A DNA stretch of 64,000 bases from Candidatus Borrarchaeum weybense (GCA_019057385.1 JAHQJS010000004.1:1234539-1298538); one strand, 5' to 3'; positions 7,356 to 64,000 are shown, counted from the first letter of the stretch. Translations and numbers: made by a program. Notes: a model not told the origin generated them from the sequence alone.

Positions 7356-7670
7356 CATTTTTTTGACTATTGTTCAAAATGGTACTAATCCCGAATTTAA
7401 TCATCCCTTATCTTTAGGAGGCAAATTAGCGACCAGAAGGCATTAATTGAGTGATGTTTAATCTGTTTTGGATCTGATTTTTAAGTTTTGAAAAGTGATA
7501 TCGTGCAGCAACTTAATCCAATGTATTTTTAAATGGAATTACGTGATGAAGGGTACAAAGGTTTGAATTAAATCAACAAAAATCATTGGAGACTCAAACC
7601 AGTTTGCATAAGATCTCTTTGTTATTAGGTCAAGACAAATAGGATTATTAGTACATAAAAAAGGAAATGC

Positions 7671-8918
7671 GTGATTTCTTTGAACTCTACAACAAGTGAT
7701 GGCGCTCCCTCATTAATATCAATTAATATTACAAATTGGCTTTCTTCTTTTGCAGCAATCGTTCCATTTGTTATTATTCCTCTTTATGCGAGGGCTTATC
7801 TGGGGGCAACGCTGTTTCAGGCTAGCATAATTATAGGAACTTTATTTGGTGTAACTTCAGTGAGTTCGGTAATTATGGGTTCGTTATCAGACGAACTGGG
7901 GCGAAGAAAACCCTTTCTTATCGTGAGCATGCTCGGATCTGCCATCATTTTTCTTGTGATCCCTCTTTTGGGCAGTTCACTGCACTTGATTTTACTCATG
8001 GCTGTTTTTGGCTTTATTTCCGCTGGATTTGTCCCCTGTATAATGGGGATGGTCTCTGAAATCTCCTCAAAAACTGAAAAAGGGAGAAATTTGGGACTTT
8101 TAAACTCGACAACCTCGCTAGGATGGGCCATAGGATCCTTTTTGAGCGGTTTAATTGCGGATTTATTTAATTTTACAATGTCTTTTTATTTAGGGAGTTT
8201 CCTTGCAGTGCTTACAGTTGTATTAACAATATTTTTCTTGAAGGAGACTAAAGCCGATGTTGGTAAAGACCGAGACTTCAAAAAGGCTTTAATCGCGTTA
8301 AAAAAACGCTTTAGTTTTTCAACTAGTGGAGAAGGTGCATATCTCAAAGAAAATGGCTTAAACTGGTTTTATGTCTCTGCATTTTTACGATATAGTGCTT
8401 ATTGGGGCTCATTTGCACTACTCACAATTTTCTTTGCGTCATTGGTCTCAACGACGTGGGTGGGTATACTACTGCTGATTAATATGGGTCTCCAGGGTTT
8501 ATTGATGACTCCTGTAGGAAAGTTGTCGGATGAAAGGCTAGGTAGAAAGCCTATTATTCTATTCGGTCTATTTGGCACGACTGTCGTACTTTCCCTTTAT
8601 GCGTTATCTTACAGTCTCTATTTGCTAATTATAGCCCAAACTCTTAATGCATTTGTGTTTGCATGTATTTATACTGGAGGTAGTGCTTTTGTATCAGATA
8701 TCTCACCGAAGGGTAAGCATAATGAGGCTATGGGTTATTTAAATTCTAGCATTACTCTCGGAGCAGTAACTGGGACAATTATAGCGGGCTTTATTGCTGA
8801 AATGTTCGGTTTAAGGAACATGTTCTTTATCTTAGCAGTTTTGCCTGTTATTGGTGCTATAGTCGTTCTTTTGAAAGTTAACGAAACTATTTTGATAACT
8901 GAAACTTTGAAAGACTAA
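7671..8918 (+). CDS. MFS transporter, paralogue of 3458..4678
   Basis: GSLSDELGRRK; shares blocks such as RYSAYWGSFALL and HNEAMGYLNS with 3458..4678. Confidence 0.9.
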   Translation: MISLNSTTSDGAPSLISINITNWLSSFAAIVPFVIIPLYARAYLGATLFQASIIIGTLFGVTSVSSVIMGSLSDELGRRKPFLIVSMLGSAIIFLVIPLLGSSLHLILLMAVFGFISAGFVPCIMGMVSEISSKTEKGRNLGLLNSTTSLGWAIGSFLSGLIADLFNFTMSFYLGSFLAVLTVVLTIFFLKETKADVGKDRDFKKALIALKKRFSFSTSGEGAYLKENGLNWFYVSAFLRYSAYWGSFALLTIFFASLVSTTWVGILLLINMGLQGLLMTPVGKLSDERLGRKPIILFGLFGTTVVLSLYALSYSLYLLIIAQTLNAFVFACIYTGGSAFVSDISPKGKHNEAMGYLNSSITLGAVTGTIIAGFIAEMFGLRNMFFILAVLPVIGAIVVLLKVNETILITETLKD

Positions 8919-18390: not shown

Positions 18391-18791
18391 AATTACCACC
18401 TCAAGGAGACCCCCCAACATGTTGGGGGGAGGAATTGAGGTTGGGCGTTGCTCACACTACCCTTTCTGCGGAGACAGGGTTTGGTGTACCCAACCTCAGG
18501 TGGTGTGTTAATGACGGGTACTCGCAAGTCCCGCCGCTCCCCACACCAAGGGAGTAGGTTCTCTTCGCCAAAGTTATCAGTCAGTACTATACGATGATCA
18601 CTGAGAGTTTCCTCTCTGTTTAAACCACCGTTTACAGAGCAAAGGACTAGAGAAGCATCCTTTGGTGTGTTCTTGAACTCTCCTGATAACGTAGATACCG
18701 CCATAGACTATATGACCTCTCTTAGGCTAATCAACCAATTACTCTTGCTCCTCACGGAACAAGCCCTCTATTTTTTTGGAGGGTGATTGAC
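18391..18791 (-). mobile_element. Protein-less IscB-type (HEARO/omegaRNA) IS200/IS605 MITE, 401 bp
   Basis: Minus strand starts GTCAATCACCC..GGGCTTG..GTTGATTAG and ends AATTCCTCCCCCCAACATGTTGGGGGGTCTCCTTGAGG..; removal gives CGA-TTA-TGA with ATGA overlap of MNT stop and HEPN start. Confidence 0.87.
18520..18791 (-). ncRNA. IscB omegaRNA / HEARO-like RNA scaffold
   Basis: Ordered hallmark blocks CTACGTT, ACACC..GGATGCTTCTCTAGTCC..GCTCTG, TAAACAG..CAGTG, AACTTTGGCGAAGAGAAC; 3' boundary approximate. Confidence 0.8.
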
Positions 18792-47695: not shown

Positions 47696-48793
47696 ATGAG
47701 TGAAAAGTGGCGATTAATAGATCTTGGAAAGGTTGAATATTTAACTTCCCAGACAGTATATCATGCTGTAGCGTTGGCAAGAAGTGAAGGCGTCGTTGAT
47801 GATACGCTTCTCTTTTGCTACCCTGACAGACCATTTGTTTGTTTAGGCTATCATCAAGAGATTGAAAAAGAAGTTCGAGTCGATTTTTGCAAGAAAACCA
47901 ATATTCCTATTGTGCGACGTGTAATTGGCGGAGGCACTGTTTTATTGGATGATGGGCAATTCTTTTTCCAAGTCATGGTCTCGCGAAAAAACCCAAAAAT
48001 TCCGCTTACAATTGCCGGAGCGTATAAAACGTTACTTGAAGCTCCAGTACTCACCTATCGCGATTTAGGGATATCTGCGGAATACAAACCCATTAATGAT
48101 ATAGAAGTCCACGATAAGAAAATTTCCGGGAATGGCGCAGGGCAAGTTGAAGAAACAACAGTTCTGACAGGTAACATCATCCTAGATTTCAATTATGATT
48201 TAATGACCCAGATCTTCAAAGTACCGAGCGAAAAATTTCGCGATAAGATCTCAAAGAGTCTACGAGAACGTCTTACAACGTGTAAGAAAGAGTTGGGAGA
48301 ATTCCCAGATAGGAATCTCGTCAAAGAACTTTTAATAAAGAATTTTGAAAAAACCCTTGACATTCAACTCATACCTGATGAATTAACAGAACGTGAAAAT
48401 GAACTGTTACAGAATTTAAACGAAGAATACAAAACGGAAGAATGGGTGTATGCACCGAGTCATAGACGTCCTGAATTGTACGAAAAGAGGAAGGTAAAAA
48501 TTAGCGGTGGAGTACATATCTTCGAAACTGTCTACAAGTCACCAGGAGGCTTGATTCGGATCACAGGAGAATTGACCGATGATGAGATAATTAAAGATAT
48601 TCTCATGTCAGGTGATTTTTGGTTTTTTCCCGCAGAACGTCTTCAAGATCTAGAAAACGCAATCATTGGGCATCCTGTAAACGAATCCAAGTTATTTGAG
48701 GTTATTTCACAATTCTTTACAAAGTATAGTATTGAGTCTCCTGGCACCTCCCCCGAAGATATTGTTAAGGCAATTATTCTAGGTACTAGCTAG
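47696..48793 (+). CDS. lplA: Lipoate-protein ligase A
   Basis: VRRVIGGGTV, NDI, KKISGNG, C-terminal K.PGGLIR / GDF domain. Confidence 0.88.
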   Translation: MSEKWRLIDLGKVEYLTSQTVYHAVALARSEGVVDDTLLFCYPDRPFVCLGYHQEIEKEVRVDFCKKTNIPIVRRVIGGGTVLLDDGQFFFQVMVSRKNPKIPLTIAGAYKTLLEAPVLTYRDLGISAEYKPINDIEVHDKKISGNGAGQVEETTVLTGNIILDFNYDLMTQIFKVPSEKFRDKISKSLRERLTTCKKELGEFPDRNLVKELLIKNFEKTLDIQLIPDELTERENELLQNLNEEYKTEEWVYAPSHRRPELYEKRKVKISGGVHIFETVYKSPGGLIRITGELTDDEIIKDILMSGDFWFFPAERLQDLENAIIGHPVNESKLFEVISQFFTKYSIESPGTSPEDIVKAIILGTS

Positions 48794-50592: not shown

Positions 50593-51006
50593 ATGAATTG
50601 GTCAAATATAGGAAGAATCGGTTTTGGGTTAGGTTATCTTGTTGCAGCAATCTTCAATCTTATTGTAACTCTTCGCACCCATCAAATACTCTGGGATTTT
50701 TTCATTGAGAATGCACACCTCTCCTTTTACAAAGATATTCTAGTAAACTTTATAATCCCAAATGGAATCCTCGTCATTATAATTACTGTTATTTTTGAAA
50801 TAATTTTAGGAGTTTTAGTTCTTAACAAATTGGTATTAGTAAGGATAGGTCTAATATTCGGCATACTTTGGGTCATATTTCTTATACCAATCCTACCCTT
50901 AGGCCCAGAAATGTTAACTAATATAATCCTAGCTGCAGTACAAGCTATTCTTCTCAGAAAAGAATATGAGACCACTTTTCTTGAGATGCTACGCGAACGT
51001 TTCTAG
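50593..51006 (+). CDS. Small 4-TM membrane protein (DoxX-like)
   Basis: Four hydrophobic segments, FEIILGVL. Confidence 0.65.
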   Translation: MNWSNIGRIGFGLGYLVAAIFNLIVTLRTHQILWDFFIENAHLSFYKDILVNFIIPNGILVIIITVIFEIILGVLVLNKLVLVRIGLIFGILWVIFLIPILPLGPEMLTNIILAAVQAILLRKEYETTFLEMLRERF

Positions 51007-51081
51007 CCATATAAGCACAAAAATATGCCACTTGCACGGCATTTTCTTAGAAAATATCATTTGTACAGTTTATGTATTATA

Positions 51082-52137
51082 CTAGTGTTTTCGATCCAAA
51101 AGAGTATCAGCTAAAGTGAAAAGTGTTTTTTTCGCATGTGAATCAGGAAAAAATTTCAGGCTATCTTTAGCCAAATTTACAAATTTAGTAACTTTATATT
51201 TTGCCACTTTAGGTGCATCAGTCATTTGAATGATATGACCTGCTTCTGTTATCTCTTCTTCGCTAATTTTATCTGTTTGGAGTATTTCTAATAATCTGCG
51301 TTTGTATGGCTCAGATAGTTGGTTTAAAGCATATAAAATTACAAAATTGCCCAACTTGTGTTCGATAATATCTTTTCTATGTTCTTTTCCAAATTGTTGA
51401 CTATTTCCAAATATATCAAGATAGTCGTCAGAAATCTGAAGAGCAATTCCCGCGTTCATTCCAAATTGCTTTGCTGCCGCAACATATTCATTATTTCCAT
51501 TTACGCAAACTACTCCTGCTTCACATGCTGCACTAACCAATGCGCCCGTTTTGTTTTTACATAAAGTAAAATAGTCATCTATGGTTGCATCTTGAAGGCG
51601 ATTTTTTATTAGATATTCATTATTTCGTCCAGTCTGTTCAAGAAGGATATCTAGTCGTTCACCAATAAGCATTCTCTGCATAGCACGAGAGAAAACCTTC
51701 TGAATTTTAGTTGGATATTCGGTTTTTTGAGCGGCTAAAACTATCGCTTCTCGATATTTCATGGCAATTAATACGGCGATAGGCATACCAAATTTGACCC
51801 ATGAAGTGGGCTGGTTTCGTCTAAGAATAGATCGATCAATAATATCATCAATTATTAGTGAATGAGTATGAATTAATTCTATTCCAGCCGCAGCATAAAT
51901 TGTAGACTCAAGTTTGCCACCTGCGGCATCACTAAAAGTCATAGTTAATAATGGGCGTAGGCGTTTCCCTCCTGTCTGAACCTGATATTTAACAGCATCA
52001 TAAAAATCTGGATTCGTTTCTTTTTGTAATAAATCTAACATAACCTCGCCAATGAGGTTTCTCCATTCCTCCATGGTATCACTCGATACTGTATCTAATA
52101 TCTCGCTATCGTTTTTTCCTTCGATTATTCCTTGCAA
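51082..52137 (-). CDS. Trans-polyprenyl diphosphate synthase
   Basis: GGKRLRP, DDIID..RR, KTG, QISDDYLD. Confidence 0.93.
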   Translation of the reverse strand: MQGIIEGKNDSEILDTVSSDTMEEWRNLIGEVMLDLLQKETNPDFYDAVKYQVQTGGKRLRPLLTMTFSDAAGGKLESTIYAAAGIELIHTHSLIIDDIIDRSILRRNQPTSWVKFGMPIAVLIAMKYREAIVLAAQKTEYPTKIQKVFSRAMQRMLIGERLDILLEQTGRNNEYLIKNRLQDATIDDYFTLCKNKTGALVSAACEAGVVCVNGNNEYVAAAKQFGMNAGIALQISDDYLDIFGNSQQFGKEHRKDIIEHKLGNFVILYALNQLSEPYKRRLLEILQTDKISEEEITEAGHIIQMTDAPKVAKYKVTKFVNLAKDSLKFFPDSHAKKTLFTLADTLLDRKH

Positions 52138-52183
52138 TGCTATCGAAACCTCTATGTTAGCCCTTATTTTAATATTATATAGT

Positions 52184-53368
52184 TTAGGACAGACTTTTTA
52201 CTTTATTTTTCAAATTTAGGTAAAAATTGAATAATCTTAGAGAAACAGGGAACTCGCAGCGGATTAGATGATCAAAATATTGTTGTGCTCGTTCATTAAA
52301 AAACGAAGAGATTGATCCATTGAGAAGCAATGAATCTGTGAATTTTCTGATTCTGAGACTATTCTTCATCCTGTTCCCAATTTCCTTTCTCCACAATCTT
52401 TCAAAGTTAGACAGTTCACTTTCACCTCGTAAATGTTTTAATATTGCTTCAGCGCCTATTCTTCCAGTAAGTAATGCACTAGGGATTCCTGCTCCGACAT
52501 GTGGCATTACGAAACCTCCCGCATCACCGATACATATCATATTCCCTCGTCTAGTTGCAGTATCCGAAAATGGTCCTTCAATTGGTACCAGCTTTGAGGA
52601 AGAACTTATGATCCGCCCTCCATCTAATAGATTTGAAGCTGTAGGATGCTCTTTAACAAACTTCCGAAAGTATTTTTTTATTTTTAAATTGTTAGTAAAA
52701 CGCTTTCGTATGCCTAAACCTACATTTGCTATGTGGTCTCCTTTAGGTATAATCCAGGCATATGCGCCTGGCGCGTATTCTTTACCAAAGTACATTTGAA
52801 CGGTGTCTGCATCAACATTTACATTGTCCATAATTGTAGTAAAGCATATAGCAAATTCATAATTTTTCCTACGAACCCCCTCAGTGAGTATTGATCTTGG
52901 ACCGTCAGCCCCAACAATCACTCGGGCTTTAACTTGCTTAATAGTGCCCATATGTTTCACATGGACGCTTCCATTTCCAGAGACACTTATAACAGGCGAA
53001 TCACATTTTATAATTGCGCCCGCATCCATCGCTCTTTCAACTAGGGCTTGGTCATATTTATCTCGAAAGACAATGTTGCTTTTAAATCTGGATTTTATCT
53101 TGTTGCCCATTGAATCGATAAGTTCTGTATATTCCGTAATATTTGCGAGCGTATTCTGGGGCGGCTCTATTAATTTTTCCGCATCTTTGGCTTTAGGAAA
53201 CAAACGACGCATTTCGGAGGGATGTGGTAACAATTCTCCACATCTAACTGGAAGTCCAATAGTTTTCTTTTTCTCAAAAAGTTGTACCTCCACATCCTTT
53301 TCAGCTAATATTCTAGAAATGGTTGCACCTGCTGGACCTCCTCCTATCACGATCACATCAGCAACCAT
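52184..53368 (-). CDS. Geranylgeranyl reductase family flavoprotein
   Basis: GGGPAG, GADG, YAWIIPKG, GDAGG..P..GAGI. Confidence 0.9.
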   Translation of the reverse strand: MVADVIVIGGGPAGATISRILAEKDVEVQLFEKKKTIGLPVRCGELLPHPSEMRRLFPKAKDAEKLIEPPQNTLANITEYTELIDSMGNKIKSRFKSNIVFRDKYDQALVERAMDAGAIIKCDSPVISVSGNGSVHVKHMGTIKQVKARVIVGADGPRSILTEGVRRKNYEFAICFTTIMDNVNVDADTVQMYFGKEYAPGAYAWIIPKGDHIANVGLGIRKRFTNNLKIKKYFRKFVKEHPTASNLLDGGRIISSSSKLVPIEGPFSDTATRRGNMICIGDAGGFVMPHVGAGIPSALLTGRIGAEAILKHLRGESELSNFERLWRKEIGNRMKNSLRIRKFTDSLLLNGSISSFFNERAQQYFDHLIRCEFPVSLRLFNFYLNLKNKVKSLS

Positions 53369-53372
53369 TCTA

Positions 53373-54320
53373 TCACAACACAATTAGAACAATGTAACGG
53401 ATTAGGAATCCTACAATGAGCAAGATTCCGGTAAATAAGTGCGTCATAACCGTCATAGCTTGCGCTGGTATTAGCTTAGGTGTATTCAGATAGTTTTTAT
53501 GGGCTATCTTCATTCCAGGGATTGCAAACAGCGGTAAAGTAATGAAACTAATAAGACAAAACAGCGGTAAGAACGAGAAAACAATACCCAAAGCTATAGC
53601 TGCATATGTGCCCAGAATCAAACCGTGATACACGCGTACCGCTGATAAGGAACGGCCGAGTCTGACAACTAAATGGTCTTTACCAACCTCTTTGTCGGCA
53701 ACATAATCGGGAAATTGATTGATCCAAATTACCGCTGTGATTAAAAATGCGACCGGAATTGATGCGATCAAAGGAACAAGCGTTATTTTCACCGTTTGTA
53801 CGTAATATGCGCCAAGGACACAAAGAGGACCGAAGTTGATACCTATAGCAACTTCTCCAAGTCCTTTAGAAGCAAGTGCTACATAAAAAAAGCCACATAA
53901 TGCGCCAATAAGTCCAAGTACAAGCAGAAACCAACCAATTACAAACGTGAAATACAGACCAATAGCGATACCTATGCCTAGCAAAATGAGTGATGCAACA
54001 AGGACATCACGAGGCTTTAGAATTCCCTCACGTAAAAAGTCGCTTCCTCCGCTGAATGGAGTAACTTCTTTGTTAATTATATCCGTACCGCTTTTAAAGT
54101 CAAAATAATCGTTGGCTATATTTGTACCTGCGTGGAGTGCGATTCCTCCAATTAACGCCAAGACAAAATAAAGTGGATAGAACGCATTTTCGTAAACAAA
54201 TGCAATAACAGATCCTAGGATTATCGGAATAATTACTGCGGTAAGGAATTTTGGTCTTGTAGCGTTAAACCAAAGTTTTATTGAGCTATATTTTATATGA
54301 GATACTTCAGTCATTCTCAT
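53373..54320 (-). CDS. menA: MenA-like UbiA prenyltransferase
   Basis: TRP, NIANDYFDFKSGTD, FSGGS, GLGE, NQFPDYVADKEVGK. Confidence 0.8.
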   Translation of the reverse strand: MRMTEVSHIKYSSIKLWFNATRPKFLTAVIIPIILGSVIAFVYENAFYPLYFVLALIGGIALHAGTNIANDYFDFKSGTDIINKEVTPFSGGSDFLREGILKPRDVLVASLILLGIGIAIGLYFTFVIGWFLLVLGLIGALCGFFYVALASKGLGEVAIGINFGPLCVLGAYYVQTVKITLVPLIASIPVAFLITAVIWINQFPDYVADKEVGKDHLVVRLGRSLSAVRVYHGLILGTYAAIALGIVFSFLPLFCLISFITLPLFAIPGMKIAHKNYLNTPKLIPAQAMTVMTHLFTGILLIVGFLIRYIVLIVL

Positions 54321-54443
54321 TACCCATTTTTTAGTTAGAACTCAGTTTATCATTAAATTTGTAATGAATTTGCCAAACTTAAGTTAAAAGCTAGTAAATG
54401 GTATAGGCATAATTGATTGTAAGTTGTATATATATTTCACAAA

Positions 54444-55796
54444 CTAGCGAACTAACAGCACTTTAGCATCGTGTTCGATTAATTTTGCACAATTACGTCC
54501 AGATCTTGCAGCACCTTCTATAGATGAATGCCAATTATCGTTATTTGCATAATTTCCAGCAATATAAAGCCCTTCAATCGGAGTTCTATTTGTATCTAGT
54601 TTTAATGACATAATCCCAGGGTATTGTGCCTCTATAGCATTCTTGATCTTCAAAACTTTCGTCCAGAGAAGATGCTTTTCAATTTCAGGAAAAAGATCTT
54701 TTAGATCCTCAATGAGAATGTCTACTATTTCCTCATCAGTCTTGTTCTGTAAAGATGGTTCAATGCAGGTTCCAGCAAGAAGGCTCTTCCCTGGAGGGGC
54801 AATAATTCCATATGGAGGCAGAATCTGCGCAACTGCAGTGATTAACTTGTTTGGTGTTAGGATCACGGATCTGTGATCTGTTAGTGACTTGTCTAGTCCG
54901 ATTTGTATTGCTAAGGCGGATGTATACTTAACTTCTTTAATTCGTTCACGGAAGTCGCTTGGGAAGTGTTTTTCAGAGACTAAATTAAATAGATTGATAA
55001 TAGGTCCTGTAAAAACGACAAAGGGCATTTCAAGAAATTCTTCAACGCCTTCACGGATATATTCAATTCCTTTTACTCGTTCATCCTCTATGACTACTCG
55101 TTTGACTGTACTATTTGTCCAAACTTCGCTCCCCATCCGTTCGCAATACCATTTCAAAGCTTTGGATATTACGCTTAGGCCAGCAGTCTCAACACCTTTT
55201 TCTGGATAATATACAGCCAAACTTTCTCTTTCTTTGACCCTCAGTTTTTCAGCATGTAGCCAAAGCCCACTAGATACTTGTTCAGGTGGTAGAAATGTTA
55301 TTGATTTGATGAGTGGGGCGTAAAAAAGTTCCAATGCTTTCTTGCTAAGATTTGTTTCACACCATGAGGCAAAATTATCCTCATCGTACTTCATAAAATA
55401 GTCTATATCGCTTTTTAAAATCCTGTTTGAATTTGTTAGAATTTTTACTCGATCGGCAAAATCGAGTAAACCAAATTTTAAAATACTAGAAATTTTTCGC
55501 TCTAATCTAAAGAATTTTTTGTTGTGATAAAATACAGCGCCTTCTCCAATATATCTCATACGAACGGCGGCCTTTTTCAGGAACGGTATAATGTATGAGT
55601 AACCTCCTAAGAAAAGGTGTAACCCTACATCATATGTATATCCCTTTTCTATAAAAGAGCGGACATGTCCACCCACTTCCGGCTCTTTTTCTAATATTAC
55701 ACTACGAGGCCTTAAGCGTTCCAATTCACAGGCACATAATAATCCAGAAATCCCCGCACCAATTATCCCTGCTTTTATTCGATGAGTTTTCAACAA
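54444..55796 (-). CDS. FAD-dependent oxidoreductase, phytoene desaturase/HpnE/amine oxidase superfamily
   Basis: GAGISGL, E....VGG, DVGLHLF, SIEGAARSG. Confidence 0.8.
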   Translation of the reverse strand: MLKTHRIKAGIIGAGISGLLCACELERLRPRSVILEKEPEVGGHVRSFIEKGYTYDVGLHLFLGGYSYIIPFLKKAAVRMRYIGEGAVFYHNKKFFRLERKISSILKFGLLDFADRVKILTNSNRILKSDIDYFMKYDEDNFASWCETNLSKKALELFYAPLIKSITFLPPEQVSSGLWLHAEKLRVKERESLAVYYPEKGVETAGLSVISKALKWYCERMGSEVWTNSTVKRVVIEDERVKGIEYIREGVEEFLEMPFVVFTGPIINLFNLVSEKHFPSDFRERIKEVKYTSALAIQIGLDKSLTDHRSVILTPNKLITAVAQILPPYGIIAPPGKSLLAGTCIEPSLQNKTDEEIVDILIEDLKDLFPEIEKHLLWTKVLKIKNAIEAQYPGIMSLKLDTNRTPIEGLYIAGNYANNDNWHSSIEGAARSGRNCAKLIEHDAKVLLVR

Positions 55797-55827
55797 AGCC
55801 CTCCTTCATATCTTTTAACGTACTTTT

Positions 55828-57009
55828 CTACAGGTCAAGTGCTTGCGCAACAATTTGAGTGATGTCAAGCATTTTTACTTTGGAATTTTTTTCTCTTATG
55901 GCTTCTTCCATATTCAAATAACATGCTGGGCATGCAGAAACGACACTATCTACTCCAAGGCTCTCAACTTCTTCAATCTTCTTCAAACCCATTTTTAAAG
56001 CGAGTTCAGGGTTTGTTATTTTTAAGACACCGCCACCACCACAGCACTTGCAATCTTGCTTTACTTTTGGAAGTTCAATAAAATCGAGATGCAGAATGCT
56101 TCGCAATATCTTTCGAGGTGCTTCATAGACACCACTTAATCTTCCTATCTCACATGGATCGTGATAAGTCGCTTTAATATCTTGAACTCTCTTAAATTTC
56201 AATTTTTTTGTATCAATTAATTCTGCAAGGTATTCTACTGCATGCTTCACTTCAAAAGGTAATTCTAGTCCTAAATGGGAATACTCTTCTTTCCAGCCTC
56301 TGTAACAGCCAGCACATGTAGTAATAAGTGTTTTAACGCCTAATTGTTCAAATTTTTTTATATTATGCTCTGCTAACTCTTTTGCAAGTGGAAATGCTCC
56401 TGATAGGAAGTATGGGCTACCACAGCACCATTCTTCTTCCCCTAATAGTGTGAAATCAATCGATAAATTATCTAAAATTTTGATAAAAGCTTCAGGGATT
56501 GACGCTAACCTCCCTGTGAAACTGCTTACACATCCTACAAAGAACCCTATCTCTGCATCACTGTTAAGATGCTCTTCTACTAGATCTTCAACCTCAAAAC
56601 TCCAAATAGTCCGATCTTCGTTTGGCATGTTATATACATTATGTTCCTCTTGCATAGATGCCTTAAGATCATGTAGAGGAGTTGGCCAGAGATTGTTTCT
56701 GAAAACCTCTGCTCTTACGGATTGCCAAAACGTGACCAAATCAATAGAAACCTGACAAACTTCTTTACAGTAGCCGCATAGACTACACTTAAAGACATTT
56801 TCTGCAAAGGTTTTGTTGATGTTATCCTTTCCTAAGAACAAATTTTTCGTAAAAAGAAGTTTACCTCTTGGACCAGCGGATTCCCATCTTGCTGTTAATT
56901 CTTTAAAGGCTGGGCAGACAGCAGAACAGTATCCGCATTGTGAACAAATAAATAATTCATCATCCATATTAAAGCGTCTAATTTCAGGTAACTTCATTGC
57001 TTTCTTCAC
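55828..57009 (-). CDS. Fe-S oxidoreductase, GlcF/HdrD-like (2x4Fe-4S + 2 CCG)
   Basis: CSQCGYC..VCP, CSLCGYC..VC, CCG, YHDPC, CCGGGG, ACPAC. Confidence 0.9.
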   Translation of the reverse strand: MKKAMKLPEIRRFNMDDELFICSQCGYCSAVCPAFKELTARWESAGPRGKLLFTKNLFLGKDNINKTFAENVFKCSLCGYCKEVCQVSIDLVTFWQSVRAEVFRNNLWPTPLHDLKASMQEEHNVYNMPNEDRTIWSFEVEDLVEEHLNSDAEIGFFVGCVSSFTGRLASIPEAFIKILDNLSIDFTLLGEEEWCCGSPYFLSGAFPLAKELAEHNIKKFEQLGVKTLITTCAGCYRGWKEEYSHLGLELPFEVKHAVEYLAELIDTKKLKFKRVQDIKATYHDPCEIGRLSGVYEAPRKILRSILHLDFIELPKVKQDCKCCGGGGVLKITNPELALKMGLKKIEEVESLGVDSVVSACPACYLNMEEAIREKNSKVKMLDITQIVAQALDL

Positions 57010-57010
57010 C

Positions 57011-58594
57011 TCAGAATAGAATTGCTGTTAAATCAATTAGTTCAATATCACAGAAAATAGAAAGAACCCAGAAAATTCCAAATGTAATGACGAAAATTAT
57101 AACAAGAAGGAAAAGAATGCCGAAGATTGGATGTCTGGTTGGTGGAAAGAATTTCCGTCCTATGCGTAGGAATGGTACTGACATCGAAAGTAAGGGCGAG
57201 AGAGGCATTCCAAAGCGAGTTGATACGTTAATTATCTTTTTTGGATTCATTATGTTATCTGGATCAAGATTTCTCTTTAGGGTTTTTATTTCTGCAAACT
57301 GTTTCTTGCCGAAAAGTTGTTCCGCAAATTTGGCAAGCCAAATTCCTATTCCGTATATTGTGCCTCCAAATTCAGTAGCAGTTGTTACAACTTCAAAAGA
57401 TCTGTAGAATCCCATAAGGAAGGAAATCTGTTTTCTTTCGTCATCCAAAAAAAAGGTCATTACAACTGCTTGACTATTGCTACTAACAATCCCTTCAATT
57501 CCCAATCGCTCGTTTTTTGATATTTTCCTCAGTCTTAGAATAAAATCTTTAAGATTTGATAACGGTACATACACCTCACTAGGCACGAGACTTGGTCCCA
57601 CTCGTTTCAAACGCATAGGATAAAAGCGTTCTCTCCATTCAGTCTCAGCTATTTCTTTATCTAATATTTTGCCCTTATTTCGCGCTACTATTTCTTTGAA
57701 GCTCATAACATTATGGCCGAGATCGGAATCCTCTTCATAGACTATCATGCTGATATAATGGTCGCTAGGTATGTTTTCTTCTTTCACGGATGTTTTGAAG
57801 TTCACATACTCTTTATCCATGAAATGAAGGTGATAAGGGGTTGTCAAATCAACTAGCTCTACCAAACAAGAAAATAACGCTTCTAATGATTCAAAAGCAG
57901 TAACAAATTTTTTTAGAGATGTTTTCGCTTTGATACGTAATTCAATCTTCGTAATTATCCCTAGAATGCCTTCGCTCTCAATGAAGTACTGCGTTACATC
58001 ATCTAAGATATCTAGTGAATGAATTCCATTAGCAGTATTTATTACCTCTCCACTAGGCAATACTATTTCCAATGACTTTACCTGAGCTTTAACATCGCCA
58101 TATTTTAAACTACCGATACCTGAACCTCCCTCTGCAACCCATCCCCCAAGGGTAGAAGATCTGGCTGAAGTGGGGTAACTACGGAGTGTAAATTTTCTTT
58201 TCTCTAAATATTCAAGCAGATCCTCCCAAATTACCCCTGATTCAACTAGAATCGTTAAATTTTTTTCATCAAACTCAAGAATTCTATTCAATCCTCTTGT
58301 ATCGATAATTATTCCTTCTGTTACTGGAATTGCACCACCATATCCTGAGGTTGCAGCTCCACGCGGAATAATTGGAATTTTATGATCTGCGCAATATTTA
58401 ATTAGCAAACTAATTTCTTCAGCAGAATTCGGTAATACTACTGCTGAAGGTTTCATTTTAAATAATAAATGTGTCATTCCAGGTAATTCGGCTATATCGC
58501 GAATATAGTGGGCCAGTTCGTATGGATCAACTGAAACTCTGTCTTCTCCAAAAATTTGTGCTAAATCAACTTCTAGTTGTTTTTTTGGAATCAA
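57011..58594 (-). CDS. FAD-binding oxidoreductase, GlcD/VAO family, with C-terminal TM helix
   Basis: PRGAATSGYGGA, STLGGW, SEGILGIIT, DPDNIMNP; lacks the EHG motif. Confidence 0.85.
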   Translation of the reverse strand: MIPKKQLEVDLAQIFGEDRVSVDPYELAHYIRDIAELPGMTHLLFKMKPSAVVLPNSAEEISLLIKYCADHKIPIIPRGAATSGYGGAIPVTEGIIIDTRGLNRILEFDEKNLTILVESGVIWEDLLEYLEKRKFTLRSYPTSARSSTLGGWVAEGGSGIGSLKYGDVKAQVKSLEIVLPSGEVINTANGIHSLDILDDVTQYFIESEGILGIITKIELRIKAKTSLKKFVTAFESLEALFSCLVELVDLTTPYHLHFMDKEYVNFKTSVKEENIPSDHYISMIVYEEDSDLGHNVMSFKEIVARNKGKILDKEIAETEWRERFYPMRLKRVGPSLVPSEVYVPLSNLKDFILRLRKISKNERLGIEGIVSSNSQAVVMTFFLDDERKQISFLMGFYRSFEVVTTATEFGGTIYGIGIWLAKFAEQLFGKKQFAEIKTLKRNLDPDNIMNPKKIINVSTRFGMPLSPLLSMSVPFLRIGRKFFPPTRHPIFGILFLLVIIFVITFGIFWVLSIFCDIELIDLTAILF

Positions 58595-58738
58595 ATGGCA
58601 ACACCTTTAATCTCTACAGATGGGGTTAAACCAAGAAAACTATATTAAAAAATTCATGGTCTTAAAAAATAAGGTGGGGAATGATATAAGGCATTGTAAA
58701 CGGCATGAGAGTTCTCTGCCATCATACTAAGCCTTTTT

Positions 58739-59209
58739 TCACTTTCTTAATAAAGTGATCAGAATATTAATCACTCCGATGATAGTGCCTAGTGCGAGCA
58801 ACCCAATGAGAATGCCGCTTGGCACTGACGACCACACTATTGTTGGATGAACCGCAGCAGGGTTTCCTTGTAATATAAGAGTTCCACCTTGAATTCCTGC
58901 TGTGAAAATCAGCAAGGGTGCAATGACACCTAAATTGTGTAAAATCAAATGTGCCAAAGAAAGCCAATCGTTAGGCTCTCCGCTAACATAATAGACAAAA
59001 GCCCAAGCGCTCAATCCAATGAATCCAGCGAGTAGATACATCGAATAGCCTACAAACACCCATGTGCCAGCACTGCCACCTGCGACCATCCGCGATAAAT
59101 CTAACCCTTCGCCACCTGGAGGAAATATAAAAAACACTGTTATGATTGCTGCGATTACGGCATGAATTAATGCGAACCATACAAATCGCTTAGCCCATTT
59201 TTCCGCCAA
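58739..59209 (-). CDS. 4-TM membrane protein with intramembrane His residues
   Basis: Four hydrophobic helices; LIHA, AHLILHN, VHP; TTG behind AGGTGA. Confidence 0.75.
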   Translation of the reverse strand: MAEKWAKRFVWFALIHAVIAAIITVFFIFPPGGEGLDLSRMVAGGSAGTWVFVGYSMYLLAGFIGLSAWAFVYYVSGEPNDWLSLAHLILHNLGVIAPLLIFTAGIQGGTLILQGNPAAVHPTIVWSSVPSGILIGLLALGTIIGVINILITLLRK

Positions 59210-59253
59210 TTTTTACTCACCTTTACTTTTTAGTAATGACACTGGAATATGAC

Positions 59254-59347
59254 TTAAGCAATGTGCTTCTTATTCTTTTGTGCTTAATTGTCGCTTTGAA
59301 AAGGTTAAAATAGTGCAAAGATTATAACTCTTTGCAAGAAAATTGCA
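59254..59347. promoter_or_regulatory. Divergent promoter with palindromic Lrp-type sites
   Basis: TGCAAAGA-TTATAAC-TCTTTGCA (59314-59336), TGCAA-N5-TTGCA (59333-59347), TTAAGCA..TGCTTAA. Confidence 0.55.
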
Positions 59348-59366
59348 CTGCGTTGTAGGGAGCAAA

Positions 59367-59996
59367 TTGAAATTTGATGATTTAGATATCAAAATCTTAT
59401 TCTATCTCACAAAAGATTCTAGGATTTCTTTTCGAAAAATTGCAGAAAAAATTGCTCATAACAACAATGAATATAAGAATATAAACTCTAGCACCGTATT
59501 TCGGCGGTTTAAACGTCTGAAAAAGTATTTGTCATTTAACACAAGATTTGAGAAAGATTTAATTTATCACTTTAACCTTATAGGTGTGGTTGTGAATATC
59601 GACGATATTATTAAAGTTATAAATGACTATAAGAATTGTCCTCGCGTAATAGAAATGTATCGGTTATCTGGAAAATTTAATCTGTTATTTAAAGGGGTTT
59701 TCGAAGACCCAATGATCTTTTCTTCATTTATTGATGAATTAAGAAGCGACCCAAGAATTAAAAGTGTTGAACTCTGCGTCAACTGTCAACAAGTTGCACC
59801 AGAGCCAATCGCAATTAAAGAAGTATTTGACGGTAATTCTAATGTTGTAGTTGCTCCTTGTGGTAGGAACTGTGATGAATGCGCTGATTATAAGGATGCG
59901 TGTCTAGGATGCCCTGCAACAAAATGGTATTGTAAGACGATCTTTCCAATTAAGGAGAAAGTCTTAAAAAACCCGACAAGAAATAGAAAAGATTGA
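59367..59996 (+). CDS. Lrp/AsnC regulator with C-terminal Cys-rich domain
   Basis: DDLDIKIL..L.KDSRISF HTH, RAM-like SGKFNL, PCGRNCDEC..CLGCP. Confidence 0.82.
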   Translation: MKFDDLDIKILFYLTKDSRISFRKIAEKIAHNNNEYKNINSSTVFRRFKRLKKYLSFNTRFEKDLIYHFNLIGVVVNIDDIIKVINDYKNCPRVIEMYRLSGKFNLLFKGVFEDPMIFSSFIDELRSDPRIKSVELCVNCQQVAPEPIAIKEVFDGNSNVVVAPCGRNCDECADYKDACLGCPATKWYCKTIFPIKEKVLKNPTRNRKD

Positions 59997-60041: not shown

Positions 60042-60371
60042 TCATGCACCGACTCGCTCTAAATATCGAGTGCAACAAGTTTCTTCATCTGATAAATGCA
60101 TGATTTCAACACATCCAAGTGGTTTTAGAACCGCGGAACAAACAAGTGGACGTTCATCGTCCAAGCTCTTACAAATAGCGATGGCTTCCATGTGATACTG
60201 GCAGAGTTGATTCCAGAGTTGAAGGATTTCAGAATCCGTCCTTGTTGTAATCACATTCCTGTTTAGACTTTTAGCACGATTTATCATTTTTTGTGAAATT
60301 TCATCTATTCTTGTTTTCAAATCATGCACTCTTTGCTCTCTTCTTCTTTTCTTATCGATTTCTTCTAGCAA
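60042..60371 (-). CDS. Hypothetical protein (coiled coil, Cys-rich tail)
   Basis: 109-aa ORF behind AGGTGA. Confidence 0.6.
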   Translation of the reverse strand: MLEEIDKKRRREQRVHDLKTRIDEISQKMINRAKSLNRNVITTRTDSEILQLWNQLCQYHMEAIAICKSLDDERPLVCSAVLKPLGCVEIMHLSDEETCCTRYLERVGA

Positions 60372-60533: not shown

Positions 60534-61988
60534 TCATAACGTCTGAATACTAGTTATAATAAACTCAAGGATGGGCGCTGAGAAAATCCCTGTAACTATT
60601 ATCAAAATAGACGCTATTACCAAAACAAAAGTACAAGATATAGGCTCTTTTATCACGTTAAAATCTTTTGGTTCATCAATATACATTCGTTTAATGATCC
60701 ACGCATAGTATGCGAGGGAAAATGCTGTATTTAAGACACCAGCAATACCCAACCAAAGTAAACCTGCGTCTATAGCTGCAGTAAACAGAATTAATTTGCT
60801 GAAAAATCCGTTTGTTGGCGGTATTCCAGTTAATGCTACTAAGATGATAGTTAAAGTGAATGCAGTGATCGGCATATGCTTTGACAAGCCGTTATATGAT
60901 TCTAAATCTGCTGACTTCATTTTCAAAAGGACGGCTGTCGCTGCAACGAAAGCCGCACTAGTCATTATTGTATGATTCAAAATATGATATAGCACTCCTG
61001 CAATCCCTAGATAAGTTGAAGCTGCAAGACCAATGAGTATATATCCTGCATGAGCGATGCTGGAATATGCGAGCAATCGAGTAAATGTTTTTTGCATGAG
61101 AGCAGAAATGTTTCCATAGGTCATAGTGACTAATGCCAATATTGCGAACGCAAACCCCCAGTCTACTCTTAAAACTGTCATTCCGATGATGATAACCCTA
61201 ATTATGGCTGCGAAACCTGCTTTTTTGCTACCACCTGCTAAAAATCCGCTAACAGGGGTAGGCGCTCCTTCATATGTATCTGGAGCCCACATGTGGAAGG
61301 GAACAGCAGCTATTTTTATGCCAAACCCTGCAACAAACGAAATCAGTGAAAGTAAGGCAAATGGGTTTATCGAAGAGTCCATAGTGGAAAGATAATCTGC
61401 AATTAGACTAATTCGAGTCGTGCCTGTAATGCCGTAGATTAATGAGATTCCAAACAAAAGGATGGCAGAAGATATAGCTCCAAATATAAAATACTTCACT
61501 GCAGCCTCATTAGCGAGGGGATCATTTTTTCGAATGCATACGAGCACGTAGGTGGGTATTGACATTAATTCCCATGCAAGATAAAGCACCACAAGATCTA
61601 CTGAAAAAGCTACAAGAATCATACCGAGTGTAGACAAAGGCAACAAAGTGTAGTATATTTCTTGATTTGGATCGTCAGCCATATATCTGATAGATGCGAT
61701 CGATATGAAAATAGCTACCATTAAGAAGACAAAGATAAAGAAAAGAGAAAATAGATCGATCTTTAAGACATCTCCAATGAGAGTAGGTGTGTCAATGTAC
61801 TTGGGCATCTCGAATATCGTTATAGCTAAAGCAAATAAGAGATTAAATATACTCCAGCCTGCAGAAACTTCTCGTTTTAGTACCCTAATTCCAAGGCGGT
61901 TCATTGCAGGGGTCATAATGGAGAAGATCGCTAGTGTATATATCGGAAGAAATGGTTCTAATCCGAACGAAAGCAATTCAAGTTGCAT
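60534..61988 (-). CDS. nuoN: NADH/ferredoxin:quinone oxidoreductase subunit N
   Basis: EAAVKYF, KIAAVPFHMWAPDTYEGAP, RLLAYSSIAHAGY. Confidence 0.93.
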   Translation of the reverse strand: MQLELLSFGLEPFLPIYTLAIFSIMTPAMNRLGIRVLKREVSAGWSIFNLLFALAITIFEMPKYIDTPTLIGDVLKIDLFSLFFIFVFLMVAIFISIASIRYMADDPNQEIYYTLLPLSTLGMILVAFSVDLVVLYLAWELMSIPTYVLVCIRKNDPLANEAAVKYFIFGAISSAILLFGISLIYGITGTTRISLIADYLSTMDSSINPFALLSLISFVAGFGIKIAAVPFHMWAPDTYEGAPTPVSGFLAGGSKKAGFAAIIRVIIIGMTVLRVDWGFAFAILALVTMTYGNISALMQKTFTRLLAYSSIAHAGYILIGLAASTYLGIAGVLYHILNHTIMTSAAFVAATAVLLKMKSADLESYNGLSKHMPITAFTLTIILVALTGIPPTNGFFSKLILFTAAIDAGLLWLGIAGVLNTAFSLAYYAWIIKRMYIDEPKDFNVIKEPISCTFVLVIASILIIVTGIFSAPILEFIITSIQTL

Positions 61989-62008
61989 TTGAATTCCTCA
62001 TATATTCT

Positions 62009-63478
62009 CTAAATGTTTTCTAGAAGTTTTTGGCAAGATGGAACAATCGTTTGAAGCATAAGGGACGGAAATAATCCTAGTATGACTATCGGGATTACAA
62101 ATAGGGCTACAGAAATGAGTTCGATCAATTTCCCTTCGTGAGGTTCGTGATTTGCTATTTGCACTTGATTTTTTGGTCTCAGTACAATTCTGTCTATAGT
62201 CCAGACAAAATAGGCTGTAACGATTCCAGGCGCCAACACTACTATTGCAGTGAAAGAGAATGCGTTAATAGCCCCCATGAAAATCATAAATTCACTTACA
62301 AAGCTGCTGAGAAATGGAAAGCCCAGAGCAGCAAGAGCACCAAATACAAACAAAGCAGTTGTTCTTGGCATTGTATGCAGCATGTCGCTGAGTTTATCGA
62401 TCTCTCTGGTCCCAGCATTATGTTGTATTACCCCGGAAAGGAGAAAGAGAAGACCTACAGCACATGCATGATTAAACATTTGGAACACAGCGCCAGATAA
62501 TCCCAGAAGATTACCAGTAAATGCACCTAATAGCACAAACCCCATATGATTTATGGACGTAAGTGCAATCATCATCTTTAAATCACGTTGAACTAATGCA
62601 ACACCTGCGCCGTAAAAAATCGTCAATAGAGCCAAACCTATGAAGAAGTAAGCATATTCAAATGAAATCTCTGGGAACAGTGATAAATTAATTCGAATAA
62701 AGCCATATCCCCCCATTTTCAGCAATACACCTGCTAACAAAACACTGATTGGTGCAGGTGCTTCTACATGAGCATCTAACAGCCATGTGTGTAGGGGTAC
62801 GACAGGAAGTTTCACAGCGAAGCCAAAGAACGTGGTAATCATTATTATCAGTTGAAGTGGTTTTGCGATTTTGGTGTCCATGAGAATTAAAAAATCAAAA
62901 GTGTGCGGCGTTGCTGCCAGGAAGAGCAAAATGAATCCAATGAACATTAAAGAGCTTCCAGCATTAGTAAAAATTATAAACTTCATGGCGGCATATTTGC
63001 GGTTAGGTCCGCCCCATATCCCGATTAGGAGAAACATAGGTACAAGAACTAGCTCCCAGAATAAGAAAAACACGATTAAATTGAGAGAAACGAAAACACC
63101 GAGAAGTCCCATTTCAAGTATGAGGAGAAGTCCGTAGTATTGTGCTATCCTTGAAGAGATCATACTCCATGAGCCTAGTGCGGCAAGCATAGTTAGGAGG
63201 GTTGTTGCAAGTACTAATGGCAAACTAATGCCATCGACACCCACACTGTAATTTATGCCTACGGACGGTATCCATGTGATATTCTCTGAGAAGAGAAAGC
63301 CATCTCCAATAGGGTTGGCAGATATCCATAAATAGAGCGCGAGAACAAACAATACGATCGTAAATCCAATTCCAATACTCTTCCCAACTAATTCATCTTT
63401 CTTTCCAAAGCCATAAGTAAGAATTGCACCAATAAGTGCGATAATGAGCATCCATGAAATTATTCCTATTCCTAGCAT
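62009..63478 (-). CDS. nuoM: NADH/ferredoxin:quinone oxidoreductase subunit M
   Basis: GVDGIS, FWELVLVP, PLHTWLLDAHVEAP, LLKMGGYG. Confidence 0.94.
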   Translation of the reverse strand: MLGIGIISWMLIIALIGAILTYGFGKKDELVGKSIGIGFTIVLFVLALYLWISANPIGDGFLFSENITWIPSVGINYSVGVDGISLPLVLATTLLTMLAALGSWSMISSRIAQYYGLLLILEMGLLGVFVSLNLIVFFLFWELVLVPMFLLIGIWGGPNRKYAAMKFIIFTNAGSSLMFIGFILLFLAATPHTFDFLILMDTKIAKPLQLIIMITTFFGFAVKLPVVPLHTWLLDAHVEAPAPISVLLAGVLLKMGGYGFIRINLSLFPEISFEYAYFFIGLALLTIFYGAGVALVQRDLKMMIALTSINHMGFVLLGAFTGNLLGLSGAVFQMFNHACAVGLLFLLSGVIQHNAGTREIDKLSDMLHTMPRTTALFVFGALAALGFPFLSSFVSEFMIFMGAINAFSFTAIVVLAPGIVTAYFVWTIDRIVLRPKNQVQIANHEPHEGKLIELISVALFVIPIVILGLFPSLMLQTIVPSCQKLLENI

Positions 63479-64000
63479 CTATGGAAACCCTCCTAGGACA
63501 AATAATACAATAATAACAATCACAACAACTCCTGTGGTCAGAAGTGTTACATACTGTTCAATTATTCCTGTCTGGAGCTGTCCAAAAGCTTTAGAAAGTT
63601 TTTTGCCAGTTCCAGCAACTCCGTTGACGAATCCATCAACTATTCGTTGATCAATAAATTCGTTAGCTTTTGAGAGTGCTATTCCGAGCTTTGCAATAAA
63701 GTAACTCAAGGAGTTGAAGCCTCGTGTTTCGAGTCCTGTAGAACTGAAACGTGCACCGTCTATTGCCTTTTCCGCAAAAACATAATGAGATTTATCAATG
63801 ATTCCAAGTTCGAACTTATCTAGTAATGCCTTGAACATCCTTATTGTTCCGTAAACGAATACTTTGTAATAGAAGGCGTTGATATACCATCGATTTGTTA
63901 GGAACTTATGGAGACTTGCAATAATTGGATTTCTGGCTATAGTTATGGCAGAATACTTCTGTTTAATGTAGATGTAGTAACTGGGGATCAGTCCCAGAAA
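63479..64000 (-). CDS. nuoL: NuoL C-terminal part (runs off window), with extended lateral helix
   Basis: Frame open to the window edge; NRWYINAFY..IVDGFVNG..LQTG..Y + final TM. Confidence 0.88.
   Translation of the reverse strand, partial: FLGLIPSYYIYIKQKYSAITIARNPIIASLHKFLTNRWYINAFYYKVFVYGTIRMFKALLDKFELGIIDKSHYVFAEKAIDGARFSSTGLETRGFNSLSYFIAKLGIALSKANEFIDQRIVDGFVNGVAGTGKKLSKAFGQLQTGIIEQYVTLLTTGVVVIVIIVLFVLGGFP

Follow-up and report, generated by a model that had tools for sequence, protein, structure and literature searches.

The stretch analysed here, hereafter the window, is 64,000 nt of the genome of Candidatus Borrarchaeum weybense (GCA_019057385.1 JAHQJS010000004.1:1234539-1298538), and the feature under study, at positions 51,082-59,996, is a cluster of seven genes with a divergent regulatory gene. 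The genome assembly (4.18 Mb in 8 contigs) is rated 100% complete. All seven open reading frames (ORFs) lie on the minus strand in one compact 8.1-kb block; they were typed by Pfam and NCBIfam profile searches against curated cut-offs and are referred to below by the short names TM4, GlcD-like, CCG, AOX, UbiA, GGR and IDS (Table 1). An earlier note on this DNA had listed seven co-oriented genes of these types, together with a divergent Cys-tailed Lrp gene and nuoN about 0.5 kb away; the ORFs and the profile matches agree with that description, and the nuoN stop codon is found 538 bp past the end of the Lrp gene.

Table 1. Features of the cluster and its surroundings (window coordinates; TM, transmembrane).
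Feature	Coordinates	Strand	Family or remark
137-aa membrane protein, no family	50593-51006	+	convergent with IDS
Terminator-like hairpin with T run directly after the IDS stop	51025..51042	-	likely 3' end of the cluster
IDS, short-chain trans-isoprenyl diphosphate synthase (IdsA/GGPPS-like)	51082..52137	-	polyprenyl_synt
GGR, geranylgeranyl-reductase family flavoprotein	52184..53383	-	GGR_cat, TIGR02032
UbiA, MenA-related prenyltransferase, clade X	53373..54320	-	UbiA, MenA-type NCBIfam models
AOX, FAD amine-oxidase-fold enzyme	54444..55796	-	Amino_oxidase; nearest models HpnE, PDS, PRK07233
CCG, iron-sulfur protein, 2x[4Fe-4S] motif and two CCG domains	55828..57009	-	Fer4_8, CCG
GlcD-like, atypical VAO/GlcD-family flavoprotein with membrane tail	57011..58594	-	FAD_binding_4 and FAD-oxidase_C
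TM4, 156-aa four-helix membrane protein	58739..59209	-	no Pfam/NCBIfam family
Divergent control region, palindrome TGCAAAG-N9-CTTTGCA around TATA-like TTATAA	59210..59342	.	
Lrp/AsnC-type regulator, Cys-rich C-terminal tail	59343..59996	+	divergent from the cluster
109-aa ORF, Cys-rich C-terminus, no family	60042-60371	-	between nuoN and the Lrp gene
nuoN, nuoM and C-terminal part of nuoL	60534..64000	-	3' end of the nuo operon

Read from TM4 to IDS, the genes are separated by 144, 1, 31, 123, -11 (an overlap) and 46 nt. Since both long gaps (144 and 123 nt) carry a TATA-like box, the "seven-gene operon" of the earlier note holds as far as co-orientation goes, but a single operon is unproven. 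The cluster may consist of two or three transcription units, and a division into three blocks (TM4; GlcD-like-CCG-AOX; UbiA-GGR-IDS) is equally possible. Promoter scans returned nothing, the models used being bacterial and hence uninformative for an archaeon.

The UbiA product matches PF01040 with 100.7 bits, and all ten of its NCBIfam matches are MenA-type models: TIGR00751 (menA) is passed narrowly (106.7 against a cut-off of 102.15), and all eight NF00475x/NF009926 MenA models stay below theirs (for example, 163.8 against 264). UBIAD1 (8djk, E 3.5e-21) is its sole relative of solved structure, and the closest public records come from Candidatus Borrarchaeum yapensis (92% identity) and Candidatus Sifarchaeum. 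Two Asp-rich motifs, N70-D71-x2-D74 and D205-x3-D209, are invariant in two alignments. We built a tree, by a quick method and with few references, from E. coli MenA, UbiA and CyoE, the two other UbiA paralogues of the B. weybense genome, and Asgard and non-Asgard homologues, the Asgard ones from a survey sample of 301 genomes sorted into families labelled f1, f2 and so on (f7 being Thorarchaeia). E. coli MenA and five f14 sequences form a clade of their own (SH-aLRT 99), and the window protein falls into a separate 43-row clade (support 89), which we call clade X. Both clades lie on the MenA side of the family (support 94), and the window protein is far from the two paralogues and from E. coli UbiA and CyoE. 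The tree thus upholds the proposed MenA-like prenyltransferase as a member of the MenA side, not a DGGGPS, but places it outside the true-MenA clade.

Clade X, of which the window gene is the sole member in its genome, mixes Asgard families, Bathyarchaeia, Hydrothermarchaeota, Methanomassiliicoccales, DPANN lineages and many bacterial phyla (44-53% identity). With MenA and UBIAD1 the window protein shares the UbiA fold, both Asp-rich motifs (N-D-Y-x-D and D-x3-D-x4-K) and the MenA-side position in the tree. It differs from MenA in its separate clade, in a six-residue insertion in the loop after the first Asp-rich motif, where clade X reads PF-x-GGSR-x-IQ and true MenA R-x-GP-x-R, in genomes devoid of men and mqn genes and, for the members from f5, f25 and one Thorarchaeial genome, in a PNPOx-like N-terminal domain. 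Homologues of these fused PNPOx domains were not found in the B. weybense genome by tblastn, although Pfam still detected three PNPOx-like genes in front of nuoA (see below). A search for fused long forms of UbiA gave nothing. Outside archaea the recurrent neighbours of clade-X genes are a B12-radical-SAM gene (14 loci) and a gene for a UbiE-type methyltransferase (six loci). The B12-binding radical SAM gene, of about 590 codons, was seen beside clade-X UbiA in bacterial and archaeal loci (L069, L084, L086, L096, L098, L103, L106, L108, L110, L117, L121, L123, L124 and L138).

The cluster had been described as having no men or mqn ring-synthesis gene, and this holds for the whole genome: profile searches found no MqnA/D, MqnC, MenB or UbiE above cut-off, and tblastn with E. 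coli MenC, MenD, MenF, MenH and UbiC found nothing. Among the 301 Asgard genomes MqnA/D is present in one and MenB above cut-off in nine, all of them f14, and the families bearing clade-X UbiA have neither of the known naphthoquinone ring pathways. Nor was a men or mqn ring pathway found in five diverse non-Asgard carriers of clade X, two of them complete chromosomes. A CydA-like protein, from a family of quinol oxidases, is encoded in the B. weybense genome and is a possible quinol user. Methanophenazine was considered as an analogue of the product; its biosynthesis is itself not known.

The two other prenyl genes of the cluster were typed as in the earlier note. IDS matches polyprenyl_synt with 184 bits, has a His at position -5 before its DDIID motif and is one of three isoprenyl diphosphate synthase genes in the genome. 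GGR passes TIGR02032 (213.8 against a cut-off of 158.8) and matches GGR_cat with 71.7 bits, and it is far below the cut-offs of the MenJ and DGGGPL-reductase equivalog models. It is a dedicated paralogue: the genome has five further GGR genes, and its identity to any of them does not exceed 28%.

The domain match of AOX (PF01593, 122 bits) likewise agrees with its CrtI/HpnE-like typing, and its scores are below the equivalog cut-offs (HpnE, 107.7 against 283; PDS, 89 against 569). The nearest solved match is plant phytoene desaturase (5mog, E 3.5e-17), an enzyme that hands electrons to plastoquinone. The AOX gene is unique in the genome. A phytoene synthase gene had been reported missing from the cluster, and phytoene/squalene synthase (PF00494) was not found anywhere in the complete genome; two genus mates do carry it (G050:C70:8101-8841 and G020:C211:3439-4176). 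A role of AOX in a carotenoid or hopanoid pathway was therefore rejected for B. weybense, which has no squalene or phytoene synthase gene.

The GlcD-like protein matches FAD_binding_4 (134.3 bits) and FAD-oxidase_C (60.4 bits), scores 199 on TIGR00387 against a cut-off of 568, and has LctD (7qh2) and LDHD (8jdb) as its best sequence matches in the PDB. With GlcDEF and D-lactate dehydrogenases it shares this fold and the pairing with a CCG iron-sulfur subunit. In contrast to GlcDEF, LctD and LDHD, it has no H-x6-H pair, a three-residue deletion and a Tyr stand in the alignment at the S-G-E-H-G site of LctD and LDHD, and it carries a membrane tail. The same metal and catalytic motifs are missing from all module-linked relatives, from the Hydrothermarchaeota homologues and from fused GlcD-CCG proteins of Bacillota, whereas five other GlcD paralogues of the B. 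weybense genome retain GEHG. The identities given in the earlier note, a GlcD/VAO flavoprotein with a TM tail and a CCG Fe-S protein, are thus correct, but because the catalytic and metal sites are missing the pair is not an ordinary GlcD/GlcF-type dehydrogenase, and an ordinary D-lactate or glycolate dehydrogenase was rejected on the same ground.

An amphipathic segment follows the catalytic domain in all GlcD-like relatives, and the window protein adds a C-terminal TM helix to it. In Thorarchaeia the segment runs into a complete NuoB domain with the N2-cluster cysteines, which yields 646-aa proteins. At one such locus (L048, fusion at 6404-8344(-)) the fusion gene is followed by a gene for a conserved 160-aa membrane protein and then by nuoA, and no separate nuoB is present between nuoA and nuoC. 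One complete Thorarchaeial genome has no more than three NuoB-family genes; the fusion is among them, and no other lies at the island.

The CCG protein matches Fer4_8 (42.7 bits) and, in two stretches, CCG (120.9 bits), and has no TM domain. Its best solved match is mycobacterial EtfD (9ojn, E 7.6e-33, residues 72-392), in which two CCG clusters, two [4Fe-4S] clusters and haem b wire the electron-transferring flavoprotein (ETF) to menaquinone (PMC13083937). With EtfD (Rv0338c) and HdrDE it has in common the same soluble build, a flavoprotein partner and a membrane partner. It differs from them in that no five-helix haem-b domain is fused to it, its flavoprotein is of the VAO type and not ETF, and TM4, if that is the membrane partner, has no haem ligands.

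Elsewhere in the genome about ten GlcD/CCG and several HdrCB-like pairs are encoded, among others at C2:2473-8613, C6:372276-374152, C6:687102-688903, C5:414426-419223 and C7:815025-826730. Genes for GcvH-like (lipoyl-carrier) proteins stand beside many GlcD/CCG/HdrCB-like pairs and also near the module in the non-Asgard loci L167 and L168 described below, and a lipoate-protein ligase gene is located in the window at 47696-48793. These neighbours may hint at lipoyl proteins as partners of CCG enzymes.

TM4 belongs to a family with only 70 representatives in 1.84 billion proteins. Its structural model has four long helices (predicted local distance difference test score, pLDDT, 96) and contains His16, His87, His91 and His121, which confirms the His-bearing 4-TM protein of the earlier note; the fold is not that of a cytochrome-b-type anchor. 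The model superposes on helices IX-XII of the catalytic subunits of haem-copper oxidases and nitric oxide reductases; with residues 303-462 of cbb3 CcoN it gives Z 14.6 and a root-mean-square deviation of 2.2 A over 144 of 156 residues, a score to be read against unrelated helical bundles that also reach Z of about 14. In agreement with this superposition, TM4 homologues bear weak precomputed matches to PF00115 (COX1), a model that finds nothing in the B. weybense genome. TM4 has only four of the 12 helices, and no His, hence no haem ligand, in the helix that aligns with helix X. One homologue is encoded 17 nt after a GGR gene, another beside a gene for a UbiE-type methyltransferase, and a third in the L168 cluster. 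TM4 as a NarI/HdrE-type cytochrome b was not supported, since the fold differs and PF02665 was not found in the genome. No similarity was found between TM4 and the small membrane protein encoded after the Thorarchaeial GlcD::NuoB gene.

The window ends with contig C4, which stops inside nuoL at 63479-64000, and contig C7 opens with 585 bases that code, on the same strand, for a typical NuoL N-terminus. Judging from these ends, C4 and C7 probably abut. C7:1-8492 holds the 5' part of the operon: nuoA, B, C, D, H, I, J and K, then two additional genes for antiporter-like proteins (495 and 526 aa). The joined operon would thus have 13 nuo genes and no nuoEFG, and with nuoL, M and N it would carry five antiporter-like genes. 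The cluster would lie directly downstream of this 13-gene operon, which ends just before it. NuoD of the operon retains the His that aligns with the quinone-site His; the NiFe Cys pairs are absent, and NuoD as a NiFe-hydrogenase subunit was rejected. Directly upstream of nuoA are three PNPOx/Pyridox_ox_2-like genes (C7 locus L156, 8711-9193(-), 9482-10717(+) and 10730-11326(+)), one of which is fused to DUF7530. In addition, a NuoB-family domain was observed at C6:921458-921781, within a 669-aa open frame inside a nuoC-I-B-D-like cluster of the same genome, which may represent a further subunit fusion, in a second complex I/hydrogenase-like enzyme.

We surveyed the conservation of this arrangement in Asgard and other archaea. 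The same seven-gene order is found in three metagenome-assembled genomes (MAGs) of the same genus. In Thorarchaeia UbiA adjoins IDS, GGR and one to four GlcD-like/CCG pairs, and an AOX homologue (35-40% identity) is located on the same contig, mostly 13-16 kb from UbiA (range 0.5-35 kb, 11 genomes compared). The Thorarchaeial island and the window cluster have in common clade-X UbiA, IDS, GGR, AOX, atypical GlcD-like/CCG proteins and a complex I without NuoEFG. They differ in that the island genes are spread out and the flavoprotein is fused to NuoB, whereas here a compact block adjoins the 3' end of the nuo operon, TM4 and divergent Lrp genes are present, and the flavoprotein, not fused to another protein, carries a TM tail of its own. 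In family f12 a GGR-IDS-UbiA group is divergent from nuoA.

Outside the Asgard archaea, one MAG contig (L168) has UbiA, IDS, TM4, a split HdrCB-like pair, GlcD-like, CCG, an AsnC-type regulator and AOX within 9.3 kb, the proteins being 29-52% identical to those of the window. In 7.5 kb of a Bathyarchaeial contig (L167), GlcD-like-CCG, a regulator and AOX are interspersed with three other genes. At both loci the regulator is homologous to the window Lrp protein, and its gene is placed between the CCG and AOX genes. In two further Bathyarchaeial loci (L125 and L126) HdrCB-like genes accompany IDS and UbiA. The GlcD-CCG genes situated 3 kb from UbiA in f21 (Heimdall-type) were not counted, being canonical 988-aa YdiJ-like fusions with SGEH.

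Among the 301 Asgard genomes a UbiA homologue is present in 148, a count into which the true MenA of f14 (approximately 30% identical) and a third clade, from f3, also enter. The GlcD-like subfamily is found in 95 (f1, f5, f7 and f21, and single genomes in f20 and f24) and AOX in 40 (f1, f2 and f7); in f10, the largest family without UbiA, all three are missing from each of the 68 genomes. Comparison of the genome lists showed that 86 of the 95 GlcD-like carriers also have UbiA, the nine exceptions being 74-87% complete; since related Asgard genomes are not independent, this co-occurrence carries no statistic and none is claimed for it. The linkage of prenyl and redox genes is not a matter of chance. 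The coupling of the two sets of genes was a central claim of the earlier note, and the synteny is kept across Asgard families and in non-Asgard archaea; the lack of gene-order conservation that would have spoken against it was not borne out. The adjacency to complex I is likewise recurrent, with nuo neighbours in f1, f7 and f12 and the GlcD-like::NuoB fusion in Thorarchaeia. A literature search retrieved no description of the cluster, of the orphan UbiA clade or of the NuoB fusion.

Taken together, these data lead us to propose, with moderate confidence, that the cluster is a carrier-making module combined with a redox enzyme that uses the carrier, and that it is tied to complex I. The region would be a conserved respiratory module of two parts. 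In the first, UbiA-GGR-IDS, a short prenyl chain (about C20-C25) would be made and then saturated, and the MenA-related prenyltransferase would join it to an aromatic or quinoid head group, either taken up by the cell or made via a route not known, to give a quinone-like membrane electron carrier. The second part, TM4, GlcD-like, CCG and AOX under the Lrp-type regulator, would form a membrane-attached flavo-iron-sulfur oxidoreductase wired like EtfD and HdrDE, from FAD through two CCG clusters and two [4Fe-4S] clusters to the membrane. Electrons from a substrate other than a 2-hydroxyacid would enter the carrier or go straight into complex I, and AOX and TM4 may belong to the oxidoreductase or tailor the carrier. 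As a kind of system, this would couple the synthesis of a prenylquinone-type carrier with an EtfD/HdrD-like oxidoreductase. The data show what the genes are, their conserved linkage, the Thorarchaeial fusion to NuoB and the lack of both the ring pathways and the GlcD catalytic site; we infer the redox nature of the product, its chain length, which way the electrons flow, and what AOX and TM4 do.

A partial parallel is known from Methanomassiliicoccales, where an HdrD-type CCG protein has been proposed as the direct partner of an 11-subunit Fpo-like pump that has no NADH module. That system reduces CoM-S-S-CoB, whereas here a VAO-type flavoprotein and carrier-biosynthesis genes are found.

Several observations weigh against the proposed module. 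Since the genome holds about ten other GlcD/CCG pairs, to find one of them beside any gene is in itself nothing unusual. In NuoD of the adjacent operon a Leu takes the position of the quinone-site Tyr (Tyr87; E. coli Tyr273), and a Thorarchaeial homologue has a Met there; a preprint argues that quinone cannot be admitted by Heimdall complexes. There is no cytochrome-b-type anchor in the cluster, the NarI/HdrE family was not found in the genome, and TM4 has none of the haem ligands of the proteins that it resembles in structure. DPANN archaea and many bacteria have clade-X genes too, there without nuo, GlcD or CCG neighbours. Finally, neither the head-group pathway nor the carrier chemistry is known for any Asgard archaeon.

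It is possible, and we suggest it only tentatively, that the module makes and uses an as yet undescribed kind of membrane electron carrier, with a non-naphthoquinone head group made by an unknown route, and that this carrier is the physiological partner of complex I without NuoEFG in the Sif/Borr, Thor and Heimdall groups. The VAO flavoprotein, CCG and the phytoene desaturase-like enzyme would then possibly help to make the novel head group, and in some lineages the flavoprotein, docked on or fused to NuoB, would constitute a new electron-input module.

An explanation that we regard as unlikely is that GlcD-like, CCG, AOX and TM4 are tailoring enzymes that make or modify the head group or the prenyl chain, and are not a respiratory dehydrogenase that uses the product. 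AOX accompanies GlcD-like, CCG and Lrp genes even where UbiA is not adjacent, as in L167; TM4 homologues adjoin genes for GGR and a UbiE-type methyltransferase; the flavoprotein has no dehydrogenase metal site; and an Anaerolineae locus has the order AOX-UbiA-UbiE. Moreover, since no known ring pathway is present, either the head group is imported or some genes have to provide such a pathway. However, the NuoB fusion suits a respiratory partner better, the CCG/2x[4Fe-4S] proteins of solved or known role (EtfD, HdrD, GlpC and GlcF) are electron wires, and most clade-X UbiA genes outside archaea are without these neighbours.

Rather improbable, in our opinion, is an ordinary (demethyl)menaquinone with a saturated short chain, made from imported 1,4-dihydroxy-2-naphthoate or naphthoquinone as in quinone auxotrophs, with GlcD-like/CCG as one more membrane dehydrogenase. 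Sun et al. (2021) reported menA from two MAGs of Sifarchaeia and took menaquinone to be the acceptor of Nuo, the cluster and the missing ring pathway not being described there. In keeping with that assumption are the narrow pass of TIGR00751, UBIAD1 as the only solved relative and the UbiE-type methyltransferase genes beside clade-X genes in six loci, and the PNPOx-like domains, whether fused to UbiA (f5, f25 and Thorarchaeia) or encoded by the three genes before nuoA, could reduce an imported quinone prior to prenylation. Quinone sharing in microbial communities has been described (PMC5738691). Nevertheless, clade X stands apart from true MenA in the tree and in its loop, with the insertion and PF-x-GGSR in place of R-x-GP-x-R, and the B. 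weybense genome has no UbiE/MenG above cut-off. An imported head group across 148 of 301 genomes, including those of free-living sediment lineages, is also a strong assumption.

An isoprenoid membrane-lipid pathway without a redox carrier, or an accidental proximity of archaeol-type lipid genes to a lactate/glycolate dehydrogenase, is very improbable: clade X does occur in DPANN archaea, which have no respiratory chain, and beside B12-radical-SAM genes in 14 loci, IDS and GGR also serve as lipid enzymes, and GlcD/CCG pairs are many in the genome, but UbiA is remote from its two paralogues and from E. coli UbiA and CyoE, IDS and GGR each have separate paralogues in the genome for lipids, the GlcD-like protein is without the lactate/glycolate dehydrogenase residues that five paralogues keep as GEHG, and the linkage is conserved across phyla, including the NuoB fusion. 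Standard archaeol synthesis was rejected on the position of UbiA and on the existence of those paralogues. The earlier note had allowed for enzymes that group with, and behave as, components of standard archaeol synthesis and lactate dehydrogenase; the UbiA tree and the missing GlcD motifs speak otherwise.

Energy conservation in Asgard archaea, and the reduction of quinones by complex I-like pumps, are actively debated and bear on models of eukaryote origin. To this debate the cluster contributes a flavo-iron-sulfur enzyme whose flavoprotein is fused to NuoB in Thorarchaeia, and a MenA-related orphan prenyltransferase that comes with a prenyl synthase and a reductase of its own. About one in two of the Asgard genomes sampled carries this prenyltransferase. 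Knowing the carrier and the substrate of the flavoprotein would reveal the electron donor and acceptor of Asgard pumps. Since clade-X UbiA is widespread in uncultured bacteria and archaea, its acceptor matters beyond the Asgard archaea.

Of the small ORFs that flank the cluster, the one for the convergent 137-aa membrane protein keeps its position in same-genus MAGs (85-94% identity), and the 109-aa ORF, which fills part of the 538-bp interval between the Lrp gene and nuoN, is conserved only inside the genus (74-77% identity). The window showed no block of multihaem cytochromes. The sole RNA-family match in the window is an Rfam HEARO RNA at 18554-18791 (-), with 132 bits, and is part of TnpB elements.

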